Positions 42,129-44,893 of a stretch of DNA of 64,000 bases are shown piece after piece. The stretch is from NCBI RefSeq assembly GCF_056712565.1, contig NZ_JBWXXM010000002.1. One strand, 5' to 3'. Position numbers and translations under genes: made by a program. The notes under the pieces were generated by a model. The model searched no databases and was not told where the DNA came from. It saw only the letters and a list, made by a program, of their open reading frames with translations. Origin of the DNA: a plasmid. Each line of letters begins with the position of its first letter. Within the stretch, counting starts at the first letter, position 1.

Positions 42129-42647
42129 ATGATGTTTTTTTTAACAAAGTTACTTTTGCCCATCATGATTGTTGTATTCCCAGTGGCGTCCTGGGGGAAC
42201 TCAACAACTTTTGAGGCAAAGGTGGTTAAGATTGTTGACGGTGACACCATAACTGCGTTGGATGCTCAAAACACAACCATCAAAATACGGATGTATGGTA
42301 TAGACGCTCCTGAATCTAAACAGGCTTTTGGCCAAAAAGCAAAACAGGCCTTAACCACAGCTATAGCAACTAAAATCGTTACCGTGATAGACCATGGTAC
42401 GGATATCTATGGCCGTATGTTAGGTACCATCTGGTTAGATGGATATGATATCAATGCCTCTATGGTGGACAGTGGATATGCGTGGGTTTATCGGTTCGAA
42501 GATAACGCCATTGTCCCTGGCTATATCAAATATGAATCCGCAGCACAAAAGGAGGCAAAAGGGTTATGGGCAGACACCAACCCTGTCCCACCATGGCAGT
42601 GGAGACAGGCAAACGAAAAGCCCAGAAAGGTGAAAGAGAAGAAATAA
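42129..42647 (+). CDS. Secreted thermonuclease (staphylococcal-nuclease-like) family protein
   Basis: AAGGTGA RBS then ATG 42129; signal-peptide-like N-terminus; SNase-like motifs (VDGDTI, YGIDAPE). Confidence 0.65.
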   Translation: MMFFLTKLLLPIMIVVFPVASWGNSTTFEAKVVKIVDGDTITALDAQNTTIKIRMYGIDAPESKQAFGQKAKQALTTAIATKIVTVIDHGTDIYGRMLGTIWLDGYDINASMVDSGYAWVYRFEDNAIVPGYIKYESAAQKEAKGLWADTNPVPPWQWRQANEKPRKVKEKK

Positions 42648-42649
42648 CC

Positions 42650-43546
42650 ATGATGAAAGAGCCTCATCCGTTACTTCAGTTGGTACTAAACGATTCCGGT
42701 CGTCTAACCATGCCTGTTTATTATAGAGATCAACAGTATTGCCCGACTTGCCTTACAAAGGTGTTGAAGAGTGAGGATGGAAGTTTGGCGCACCTCGGGG
42801 AAATAAATCAAAATACATGTAGACCTTCTATTTCAGTAGTTGTGACAAAAGCAATTATTGAAATGTTATGTGACGGGGAAAAAATATATGTAAATCCAAT
42901 ACGACACCGAGGCCGGGTGCTGGCACCCTCAGTAATTTTTTCTCCCGACACTCACACTTTCAAACCGTTTATAAATACAGACTATCAGCCTGTGGGAGCA
43001 AACTGGAAAAGTGAAAAGGGATATAAACTCGGTCTGTTTTATCTCAAAGATCGAGCCAACTCTATCAATAAAGAGGAATTTGATTTCATTGCCGTTATAG
43101 ACCCTGAGGCAATGCAGAAAGAATTTATTTCGGCCTGGTCTGAGGTTGATGAAAAAAATCCATTGGAAACGCTGAAGCAGATCTTACGATCTAAAAACAA
43201 CTCTTCTTTATGGGTAAAATGGCCTGGCAAAATTGAGCATGCGCAAAAAGGAAATTACAACGAAAATTACTGGTTCGATTATCAATCTGATAATCAGGAA
43301 GTGAACTGTACGGTCTCTGTTGTAGGTATCGAAGGTAACAGTTCCGGTGAGACAATTTATAGATTGCAAACTTTGCTAAAGCGTAAGCTCAATGAATATC
43401 AACTGGTTCGGTCTTTAGGGACTATTATGCTTCTTGATAATACCGGGAATATGATTCCATCAAACCATCCTTATTTTGAAGTCATCTCAAAAGCATGTAT
43501 AAATGGAGTGCGTGACTTTGTTCGTCAAAACCCGTGGGTAGTCTGA
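42650..43546 (+). CDS. Hypothetical protein (298 aa), 2 nt downstream of nuclease gene
   Basis: ATG 42650 directly after nuclease stop (42645-42647); no recognisable motif. Confidence 0.45.
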   Translation: MMKEPHPLLQLVLNDSGRLTMPVYYRDQQYCPTCLTKVLKSEDGSLAHLGEINQNTCRPSISVVVTKAIIEMLCDGEKIYVNPIRHRGRVLAPSVIFSPDTHTFKPFINTDYQPVGANWKSEKGYKLGLFYLKDRANSINKEEFDFIAVIDPEAMQKEFISAWSEVDEKNPLETLKQILRSKNNSSLWVKWPGKIEHAQKGNYNENYWFDYQSDNQEVNCTVSVVGIEGNSSGETIYRLQTLLKRKLNEYQLVRSLGTIMLLDNTGNMIPSNHPYFEVISKACINGVRDFVRQNPWVV

Positions 43547-43593
43547 CGGTCAACTATAAAGCATAATATAATTAGTAATAACAAGGAACAGAC

Positions 43594-44001
43594 ATGAATG
43601 AAAACTCAGTAATCTTAATAAGTTTATTTTGGTTTTTTTTGGGATCGAGTGTTGTAGCTGGTTTTATGGATGCATCATTATATTGCTGGATTTTTGCAGC
43701 CATAAGCGCATTGTTTCTTCTTTCGGTGATACAAACACCAAAGGAGTTAACGGTATCTATTAGTCATATGACAAGCAAAACGCTGATCTCAAAGACAGAT
43801 GATGGATACACATTTAGCATTTCACCTTACGGAGACGGGTACCGCTTATCAGTCTCGCCTGAAAATCGTCACAATGGTACCCAAAGCTTTGACGGCTGGT
43901 TCCCACGTTTTTTTTCCGAACCACAGTATGCCAAATCATCTTTAACTAAATTTCTCGGTGAGTCCTTAGTATGGGAAGAAGATTCAAGTAATGCTCTATG
44001 A
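43594..44001 (+). CDS. Hypothetical membrane protein (135 aa)
   Basis: Two N-terminal hydrophobic helices; AT-rich. Confidence 0.4.
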   Translation: MNENSVILISLFWFFLGSSVVAGFMDASLYCWIFAAISALFLLSVIQTPKELTVSISHMTSKTLISKTDDGYTFSISPYGDGYRLSVSPENRHNGTQSFDGWFPRFFSEPQYAKSSLTKFLGESLVWEEDSSNAL

Positions 44002-44046
44002 GATTACTTATTATAAATTTTTCTATTAATCTCCATGGAGTGATAT

Positions 44047-44301
44047 ATGAATTTGGCCTATTTTTTATTTTTGTCTATAACTGTTATGCTTACGAGCTTT
44101 ATTATTAAATCACTTGTCGTATTGGTAAAGTTCAAATTACTTCGTGATGAACGTCTCGAATATACCAGCAATAAAAATATTGATGAGATGTACGATTTAA
44201 TGAATGCGAAGGAAGAAATCCTCATAAGGCATCATAAGCAGATGTTGGCATTGCATCTTTCACTATTAATATTCGTTCTATTTATTGCTTACATTTACTA
44301 A
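44047..44301 (+). CDS. Hypothetical small membrane protein (84 aa)
   Basis: Hydrophobic N- and C-terminal segments. Confidence 0.3.
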   Translation: MNLAYFLFLSITVMLTSFIIKSLVVLVKFKLLRDERLEYTSNKNIDEMYDLMNAKEEILIRHHKQMLALHLSLLIFVLFIAYIY

Positions 44302-44338
44302 AAATAATTTTATTCAACATTTCAACAAAGGGTTTTCA

Positions 44339-44626
44339 ATGGAAAGCTTCGAAACTGAACAAATGATTCAATATGCTTTCTACATAAATATCGTAATAAC
44401 GACTGGTTTGGCATGGTTTTGCTTGCGGTCAGGATTGCATTACAATTTTTTCAGAAAAGCAGAGAGTGCCAGAACAAAAGGGCTGAGTAGTACCTCTACT
44501 GAACACGGTCCAGCAATAGTGAGACTAAAGAAGCTACAAGCATTAGTAGATTTTATTAGTAACTGTGCTTTTCTAATCCTTTCAATTGGCACAGCTTATA
44601 TTTTGTATGTTTGGAGCCACAGTTAA
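44339..44626 (+). CDS. Hypothetical small membrane protein (about 95 aa)
   Basis: ATG 44339 (MESFETEQ...); two hydrophobic segments. Confidence 0.3.
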   Translation: MESFETEQMIQYAFYINIVITTGLAWFCLRSGLHYNFFRKAESARTKGLSSTSTEHGPAIVRLKKLQALVDFISNCAFLILSIGTAYILYVWSHS

Positions 44627-44695
44627 CTCATACGAGGTAACTTCGGCAGGTAACAACTTCTAATGCAGGACTTTAATAACTCTAAGGGATTCTAC

Positions 44696-44893
44696 ATGAA
44701 AAAAGACGATCTAATTACGCGTTGTAAATTACTTAAAGGCGAACGCGATGAGTCTATCTTTACCATATTAATTGGGATAGTAGTAAAGCTGGGGCTGGTA
44801 GGCCTGGCATTCTATCTGTTGCTTGGTTCCACGATTGATTGGTCAAGCTGGAAAACTTATGCCGCCATGTTGATCTTGGGAGCATTTCTCTAA
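44696..44893 (+). CDS. Hypothetical small membrane protein (about 65 aa)
   Basis: ATG 44696 with AAGGGA RBS. Confidence 0.25.
   Translation: MKKDDLITRCKLLKGERDESIFTILIGIVVKLGLVGLAFYLLLGSTIDWSSWKTYAAMLILGAFL

Follow-up and report, generated by a model that had tools for sequence, protein, structure and literature searches.

A conserved operon of IncHI-type plasmids pairs a predicted secreted nuclease with an orphan protein

We analyzed a gene cluster at positions 42129-44893 of a 64,000-nucleotide stretch of plasmid DNA (contig NZ_JBWXXM010000002.1 of RefSeq assembly GCF_056712565.1), which we refer to as the window. The cluster consists of a gene for a nuclease of the SNase (staphylococcal nuclease) family, a closely spaced gene for a protein of 298 amino acids (aa) that we call p298, and four small open reading frames (ORFs). 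The locus is a conserved backbone operon of IncHI-type conjugative plasmids, which have a MOBH relaxase and a type F mating-pair formation system (MPF-F). Patterns of conservation indicate that the nuclease and p298 genes form a two-gene module that is maintained by selection, and that the small genes are real, lineage-specific cargo at a variable site behind p298, outside the conserved module. The locus is already present in public records; RefSeq labels its first product a "thermonuclease family protein" and the products after it hypothetical. The new element is the p298 family and its link to the nuclease.

Conservation of the nuclease-p298 pair

In the window, the stop codon of the nuclease gene (TAA, 42645-42647) is separated by 2 nucleotides (nt) from the start codon of p298 (ATG, 42650). 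We compared this arrangement among 12 lineages, which comprise IncHI1 (pHCM1 and pK-1L-1), IncHI1B, IncHI2 (including a second IncHI2 lineage) and metagenomic or assembly relatives found via p298 homologs. Where individual sequences must be told apart, we give them as L numbers, and proteins as P numbers. The SNase and p298 genes are adjacent in all 12 lineages, with junctions of -8 to +17 nt and with p298 identities that fall to roughly 20%; distant members of the pair were recovered at profile E-values of 6e-24 and 1.6e-14. Three lineages (L010, L012 and L017) have an ATGA overlap of stop and start codons. The p298 homologs beside an SNase gene are 297-315 aa long. IncHI2 and IncHI1 have diverged to saturation at synonymous sites, yet their nucleases are 74% identical and their p298 proteins 52%. 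One lineage, L008, retains the pair without the neighboring Dcm block (see below).

Given that synteny and junction are stable, and that both genes are under purifying selection, across such deep divergence, the pair is maintained by selection. A first-pass annotation, made from the DNA sequence without database searches, had left open an unrelated operon and had pointed to the neighborhoods of homologs as a check. These neighborhoods support a genuine association: a pairing that is syntenic and translationally coupled in 12 of 12 lineages is not accidental. In one lineage (L020), a 47-aa ORF at 5213-5356, upstream of the full nuclease gene, is a second copy of that gene's 5′ end, including the signal-peptide region; the promoter-proximal region seems to have been duplicated in part.

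The nuclease

The nuclease gene (42132-42647, plus strand) encodes 171 aa. It begins with tandem ATG codons at 42129 and 42132, of which RefSeq picks 42132. The protein matches the Pfam SNase family (PF00565) at an E-value of 3.9e-24 and 85.6 bits (cut-off 21), covering profile positions 1-107 of 107, and Staphylococcus aureus nuclease structures in the PDB align to it at an E-value of 1e-10. The motifs DGDT, R...DAPE and YGR are kept, as are all of the catalytic or Ca2+-binding residues of SNase (D21, R35, D40, T41, E43 and R87) except T41, which is replaced by alanine. At this position, SNase binds Ca2+ via the backbone carbonyl. All three motifs are intact in 10 of the 12 orthologs, and the other two have YKR or YNR for YGR.

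The N terminus is a predicted Sec-type signal peptide of about 22 aa (MFFLTKLLLPIMIVVFPVASWG; 42132-42197, plus strand), with a Kyte-Doolittle hydropathy of 2.26 over residues 1-19. A lysine at position 6 is followed by a 13-residue hydrophobic core and then by A-S-W-G; the small residues at -3 and -1 predict the cleavage site. All 12 orthologs have an N-terminal hydrophobic leader, as do relatives in Klebsiella and on IncC plasmids. The SNase-like nuclease with a signal peptide that the first-pass annotation recognized is thus well supported.

We modeled the mature nuclease fused to p298 with AlphaFold2 (AF2). The nuclease part has a predicted local distance difference test score (pLDDT) of 75-92 and shows the order of strands (E) and helices (H) that is expected for SNase, E-E-E-H-E-E-H-H; this order in the model is the basis for reading it as an oligonucleotide/oligosaccharide-binding fold, a beta-barrel with three helices. 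The ratio of nonsynonymous to synonymous substitution rates (dN/dS) of the nuclease is 0.13-0.18, as estimated from diverged plasmids with tens of substitutions. Judging by these features, the protein is an ordinary SNase-family member and falls into the class of "thermonucleases" that are widespread on plasmids. At least 5,000 plasmid records contain an SNase-type nuclease with an N-terminal leader, nearly all of them without p298. A PADLOC search matched the SNase domain to a candidate "SNc+LTD" model (E-value 3e-11) and the neighboring Dcm protein to orphan-methyltransferase models.

The p298 family

The p298 gene (42650-43546, plus strand) encodes a protein in which no segment reaches a Kyte-Doolittle value of 1.6, so neither a signal peptide nor a transmembrane (TM) helix is predicted. 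The absence of a signal peptide and the 2-nt spacing had been stated by the first-pass annotation. No match to p298 was found in Pfam, NCBIfam, PHROGs or the defence-system models of PADLOC. A word-indexed search of 5.8 billion proteins gave 34 clusters of relatives, and 25 relatives, all of them unannotated, came from exhaustively searching 1.84 billion representatives with a profile. A second profile search, using a broader p298 alignment, added no annotated relative, and the family profile had 0 matches to PDB sequences at an E-value of 10 or below. The protein is encoded in 1,556 sequenced plasmids.

In the AF2 model, p298 has an N-terminal beta-knuckle, a mixed alpha/beta middle part, and a four-stranded sheet with a C-terminal helix; a fold search with this model gave no match. 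The alignment reveals a putative zinc-knuckle, CxxC...H...C (C31, C34, H47 and C57; 42740-42820, plus strand), and we infer from its residues that it binds zinc. This motif is kept in most nuclease-linked members and in a Klebsiella clade of 341-aa proteins, and is missing from the nuclease-linked P0042 and from a clade of 254-aa proteins. Universally conserved residues are P93, W119, S121, K123, G124, G128, N183, W188, W191, E234, L261-D263 and C283. One distant member resembles, below the Pfam cut-offs, three related N-terminal zinc domains (DUF7828, E-value 1.6e-4; DUF7830, 3e-3; CoiA_N, 0.08), which are a lead for the N-terminal domain of p298 rather than a sign of membership. We also considered a PD-(D/E)XK nuclease site formed by E234/E249-x-Q251/D263 and rejected it, as the ExQ element is not kept in the distant clade. 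The selective constraint on p298 (dN/dS 0.19-0.24) was estimated from closer relatives. p298 belongs to a tiny family that is restricted to plasmids, in which the putative zinc-knuckle at the N terminus is optional and the modeled alpha/beta core has no fold match.

Homologs of the p298 core, with 254 or 341 aa, are also encoded by IncT plasmids and by IncFIB-type MOBH plasmids of Klebsiella, where no nuclease gene is adjacent (L014 4773-5798, L015 4728-5753, L016 4842-5606 and L009 6001-6765). Since these homologs do without a neighboring nuclease, the function of the core is likely independent of it. The Klebsiella core homologs are located between parAB and two genes for large immunoglobulin (Ig)-like proteins; large Ig-like proteins of that class were reported to be needed for IncHI conjugation (PMC6764697). 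Two rare proteins of 191-193 aa (P0033 and P0034), each from a single assembly, consist of an SNase domain joined to the ~50 C-terminal residues of p298, and seem to have arisen by internal deletions that fused the two genes.

Small genes behind the pair

The first-pass annotation saw four small membrane-protein genes of 65-135 aa after p298. All four ORFs are present and have TM segments, and each is preceded by a Shine-Dalgarno-like sequence. However, the 135-aa ORF (43594-44001, plus strand; two TM-like segments) is a chimera, of which the C-terminal two thirds are soluble. In the Enterobacter-type IncHI2 plasmid L005, as well as in L013 and L010, six genes follow p298, which we call s104, s85, s77, s84, s95 and s65 after their lengths. 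Three TM helices are predicted in s104, two each in s85, s84 and s95, and s77 is soluble. The window lacks 530 base pairs (bp) that are present in L005 (4763-5292) and L013, with the junction at 43761|43762 and without microhomology. This deletion joins codon 56 of s104 in frame to a site 6 nt upstream of the s77 start codon, so that the N-terminal 56 aa of the 104-aa membrane protein, with two TM helices, are fused to the 77-aa soluble protein. The conserved s77 keeps its own ATG within the chimera (43768-44001, plus strand). The intact segment is found in 456 plasmid records, mostly from Enterobacter, and the deleted form in ~640. The deletion marks two IncHI2 sub-lineages and could be used as a lineage marker.

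The remaining ORFs, all on the plus strand, are s84 (44047-44301; two TM segments at residues 9-27 and 66-84), s95 (44339-44626; a two-TM hairpin with one strong and one weaker segment) and s65 (44696-44893; one strong TM segment at residues 21-39). The last is annotated in RefSeq and has an alternative ATG at 44663 that would give 76 aa. Conservation had been set beforehand as the test of whether the small ORFs are spurious. They are kept under purifying selection: dN/dS is 0.18-0.28 for s104, 0.10-0.33 for s85, 0.09-0.24 for s84 (compared against L013 and L010), 0.13-0.17 for s95 and ~0.3 for s65, with up to ~100 substitutions underlying each estimate.

Homologs of s77 follow the pair in IncHI2, IncHI1, IncHI1B and the distant L017, with 55-61% identity and saturated dS. 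This family has 20 clusters and isoelectric points (pI) of 4.7-8.6. We considered s77 as a small acidic nuclease inhibitor, but rejected this because of its pI range and because it is missing from several lineages. Homologs of s95 are found in IncHI1 and IncHI1B (99 aa, 34-35% identical, dN/dS 0.19-0.25). By contrast, s84 is restricted to IncHI2-like lineages, apart from a weak match in L006. None of the small ORFs could be assigned to a family in Pfam, NCBIfam, PADLOC or PHROGs.

Beyond the IncHI2-like lineages, the DNA behind p298 differs in every lineage. In IncHI1 (L004), the pair is followed by a phospholipase D (PLD)-family protein without a signal peptide, in L006 by an SRAP protein and in L017 by type VI secretion system genes. 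L020 has an 810-aa Ig-like protein and then SMODS and S_4TM genes resembling a cyclic-oligonucleotide-based anti-phage signaling system (CBASS), and L008 has TolA-like and lipoprotein genes. The small genes are thus real, but they are lineage-specific cargo.

Plasmid context

Positions 40000-47300 of the window match 1,223 plasmid records, 1,080 of them at an identity of at least 99%, and 1,048 are typed as conjugative. The matching plasmids are large and conjugative, their hosts are Escherichia, Salmonella, Enterobacter and Klebsiella, and the examples that we inspected are typed IncHI2A, MOBH and MPF_F. Upstream in the window are a ter operon, hipBA, HNH endonucleases and a plasmid H-NS gene, and downstream is a resistance region. 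Given these neighbors, the operon belongs to the non-transfer backbone, away from the tra genes and the origin of transfer (oriT). A placement in a leading or anti-restriction region is not supported, as the block is situated between ter/HipAB/H-NS and the resistance region, and no tra genes lie within ~20 kb.

As the first-pass annotation noted, the region is AT-rich: the G+C fraction is 0.44 in the nuclease gene, 0.40 in p298 and 0.36 in the small ORFs, versus 0.50 in the whole window. This low-GC tract extends to ~47300. It includes four further AT-rich hypothetical genes at 45230-47259 (153, 135, 175 and 128 aa, with a TM segment in the 128-aa product), for which Pfam gave no above-threshold match, and it ends at a Tn3-family transposase fragment at 47333. 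We found no RNA elements in the region, the sole Rfam match having an E-value of 0.31. Promoter and terminator scans gave matches that were no more frequent than in shuffled sequences. A candidate internal promoter is located at 43543-43572.

The pair is part of a larger shared block with a fixed gene order. A DUF4942 gene and a coiled-coil gene point rightward, DUF1173, a 55-aa protein and Dcm point leftward, and SNase and p298 again point rightward. The DUF4942 protein (34485-35303, plus strand; Pfam E-value 1e-26) is 97% identical to its L010 ortholog. The 401-aa coiled-coil protein (35300-36505, plus strand), identified by coiled-coil matches, is 91% identical to its L010 ortholog and is 387-406 aa long across lineages. 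The divergent operon (38920-41917, minus strand), whose arrangement is common to 11 of the 12 lineages, encodes a Dcm-type C5 methyltransferase (40490-41917, minus strand; NCBIfam PRK10458, E-value 7e-255), the 55-aa protein (40262-40429, minus strand; phrog_25588) and the annotated DUF1173 protein (38920-40239, minus strand). A 67-aa ORF (36572-36772) also belongs to this operon. In this particular plasmid, the block is split by the IS21-family insertion sequence ISEc62 (36827-38796, with istA and istB), which is inserted between DUF1173 and the 67-aa ORF. DUF1173 was described as a zinc motif combined with a degenerate PD-(D/E)XK domain (PMC3045609). Hence, a role like that of Vsr in repair, or one resembling restriction-modification, is conceivable for it beside Dcm.

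The Dcm and nuclease genes are separated by a 214-bp divergent intergenic region (41918-42131), presumably the home of both promoters. In alignments of IncHI2-like relatives, whose coding dS is 0.1-0.7, it is well conserved. Sigma-70-like matches within it are weak and do not exceed those in shuffled sequences.

Possible functions of the pair

The explanation that we prefer, if only tentatively, is that the operon combines an exported nuclease with a cytoplasmic, nucleic-acid-associated p298 that has a co-regulated function of its own and is not an inhibitor. The Sec pathway would export a staphylococcal-type, presumably Ca2+-dependent and sugar-non-specific nuclease, which would degrade unprotected DNA or RNA in the periplasm or, upon release, in the surroundings of the cell. 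Its likely targets would be stray or competing incoming DNA and extracellular DNA. p298 would be translated in step with the nuclease by means of the 2-nt or overlapping stop/start arrangement, would remain in the cytoplasm, and would most likely be a DNA-binding, DNA-processing or regulatory factor that is co-regulated with the nuclease. The 77-aa soluble protein and several mini-proteins with 2-3 TM helices would have been added as cargo behind p298, one of them being remodeled here by deletion. The enzymatic activity, the locations, the association of p298 with DNA and the biological role are all predictions from sequence.

We suggest a role of p298 with nucleic acids because of the optional zinc-knuckle, because of the DNA-directed neighbors, and because H-NS or HU genes occupy its position elsewhere. 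All of the neighbors in the conserved block that we consider here (Dcm, DUF1173 and DUF4942) are directed at DNA. Several points weigh against our explanation. Nucleic-acid binding by p298 is something that we only infer, and its pI is near neutral and variable. The AF2 model of p298 is of moderate confidence (pLDDT 72, predicted template-modeling score, pTM, 0.64), and the sub-threshold matches of the N-terminal domain stem from the single distant member. Kinship between p298 and the neighboring DUF1173 protein was rejected, as the hhalign probability of 0.9% is not significant; the stretch that was aligned is the nuclease-like core of DUF1173. Strict synteny and coupling over deep divergence would also be expected of proteins that cooperate physically, and our explanation does not depend on such cooperation. 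Finally, we found no functional study of the nuclease-p298 module, and no expression or phenotype data, in the literature that we searched.

One alternative is that the two genes are functionally unrelated and merely co-transcribed, and that they have stayed together only because the backbone block that contains both is passed on vertically. Every lineage with the pair is a MOBH plasmid related to the others and has the flanking block in common with them, so that simple inheritance could account for the pattern, and each of the two genes is found separately elsewhere. However, the junction stays within its narrow range despite saturated synonymous sites and p298 identities as low as those given above, the DNA directly downstream has been replaced repeatedly, which suggests that the boundary of the pair is selectively maintained, and the pair is found in L008 without the remaining genes of the block. 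We therefore regard this alternative as unlikely, while granting it some weight.

The first-pass annotation raised the possibility that p298 is an inhibitor or immunity protein. In this scenario, p298 would be a dedicated cytoplasmic protein that binds nuclease folded before export, as barstar does with barnase and NuiA with NucA. The genes are adjacent, co-oriented and coupled, which favors stoichiometric co-production; p298 is cytoplasmic; the pairing is kept in 12 lineages; and p298 changes faster than the nuclease between IncHI2 and IncHI1. On the other hand, p298 has ~300 aa and is not consistently acidic, its homologs having 298-315 aa and pI values of 5.5-9.0, and the core homologs on IncT and Klebsiella plasmids have no nuclease beside them. 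Conversely, the Klebsiella plasmid pKP0079-1 has an intact, 50%-identical SNase with a signal peptide, and tblastn and hmmsearch over 188.6 of its 194.9 kb (97%) detected no p298-family gene. The similar nuclease of IncC plasmids (37% identical) is followed by an HU gene. SNase also requires millimolar Ca2+, and S. aureus is not known to need a nuclease inhibitor. The AF2 fusion (mature nuclease, glycine-serine linker and p298, built on a shallow alignment of 12 pairs and without predicted aligned error) has a pTM of 0.41, as for independently placed domains; this weak test shows no confident complex. The size and pI of p298, the separate occurrence of each gene and the pTM lead us to rank the inhibitor idea low, and we consider it improbable.

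Comparably improbable is that p298 is a zinc-ribbon DNA-binding regulator of the divergent dcm and nuclease promoters. Such a function would fit the putative zinc-knuckle and the conserved 214-bp region shared with the Dcm operon, and the autoregulated divergent par promoters of RP4 offer a precedent (PMC7314908). By contrast, the zinc motif is lacking in the nuclease-linked P0042, a protein of ~300 aa with a large, highly conserved core exceeds what a simple repressor needs, profile searches detected no helix-turn-helix or other DNA-binding domain in p298, and L008 has the pair without the Dcm operon.

It is still less probable that p298 assists the pre-nuclease as a chaperone or targeting factor and that the small proteins act in holin-like release, as NucE and NucD do for the Serratia nuclease. 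Proteins with 2-3 TM helices do follow the pair in IncHI2, IncHI1B, L012 and L008, their sizes and topologies resemble class I/II holins, and no terminator is predicted between the genes. However, Pfam, PHROGs and NCBIfam gave no holin, endolysin or release-protein match, the operon has no muralytic gene, the membrane ORFs are absent in L006, L018, L019 and L020, which have other cargo instead, the 530-bp deletion has removed one and a half of the small genes from ~58% of IncHI2 plasmids, and classical Sec substrates need no dedicated chaperone.

An equally speculative extension is that SNase and p298, with s77 in some lineages, constitute a previously unrecognized two-compartment system, a new type of exclusion or defence module specific to IncHI-type plasmids, in which the periplasmic nuclease would destroy unprotected DNA in the envelope (competitor plasmids, transforming DNA and some phage genomes) and p298, a cytoplasmic zinc-knuckle protein of a new fold, would sense, process or license DNA inside.

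IncHI1 and IncHI2 plasmids are vehicles of multidrug resistance in typhoid Salmonella, and of genes for colistin resistance (mcr) and carbapenemases in E. coli and Enterobacter. The operon is part of the conserved backbone in more than 1,000 sequenced plasmids, and its function has never been assigned. A periplasmic nuclease retained by thousands of conjugative plasmids could affect the entry of foreign DNA, the handling of biofilm DNA and plasmid establishment. As p298 has no detectable relatives in sequence or fold, characterizing it would define a new protein family. If the operon is instead a passenger, the main value of these results is a cleaner annotation, in which the 135-aa ORF is recognized as a chimera, the small genes as real and the site behind p298 as one of variable cargo. 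Overall, we consider the locus moderately remarkable: it is clean, conserved and clinically widespread, and the evidence indicates no unusual mechanism.

Comparison with known systems

Like CoiA- and DUF1173-type proteins, p298 has an N-terminal Cys/His zinc-knuckle (putative in p298) that precedes an alpha/beta domain, but it does not have their PD-(D/E)XK signature. The gene organization recalls barnase-barstar, NucA-NuiA of Anabaena and the colicin DNase-Im pairs, in which the gene of a secreted nuclease is likewise next to that of a cytoplasmic protein. However, barstar, NuiA and the Im proteins have 85-135 aa, are acidic and are obligately linked to their nucleases, whereas p298 is far longer, has a neutral or variable pI and is separable. 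No sequence or fold similarity of p298 to these inhibitors was found.

The thermonuclease of S. aureus (Nuc) shares with the window nuclease the domain family, the catalytic and Ca2+ motifs, a secretion signal and a similar size. The two are only ~25-30% identical, and the window nuclease is plasmid-borne in Gram-negative hosts, with the periplasm as its predicted first destination. It also differs in having a C-terminal PWQWR...lysine-rich tail and in being followed by the coupled 298-aa gene, which S. aureus nuc lacks.

ParB of RP4 is the best-studied plasmid "thermonuclease", an SNase homolog with Ca2+-dependent nuclease activity. It too is a plasmid nuclease in a multi-gene backbone operon (parCBA of RP4/RK2), and a second operon is transcribed divergently from it (PMC7314908). 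The partners differ: those in RP4 are ParC and the resolvase ParA, with the toxin-antitoxin genes parDE on the divergent side, while in the window the partner is p298, divergent from Dcm and DUF1173, and there is no resolvase. No homology between p298 and either ParC or ParA was detected.

The thermonucleases of other MOBH plasmids, namely the IncC nuc and those of Klebsiella IncFIB/IncHI1B virulence-type plasmids, are 37-50% identical to the window nuclease, with signal peptide and motifs intact. In pKP0079-1, the nuclease gene is likewise divergent from DUF1173, which is split there. In these plasmids, the position that p298 holds in the window is occupied by other genes, H-NS in pKP0079-1 (L022 5817-6215) and HU in IncC (L023 4547-4819).

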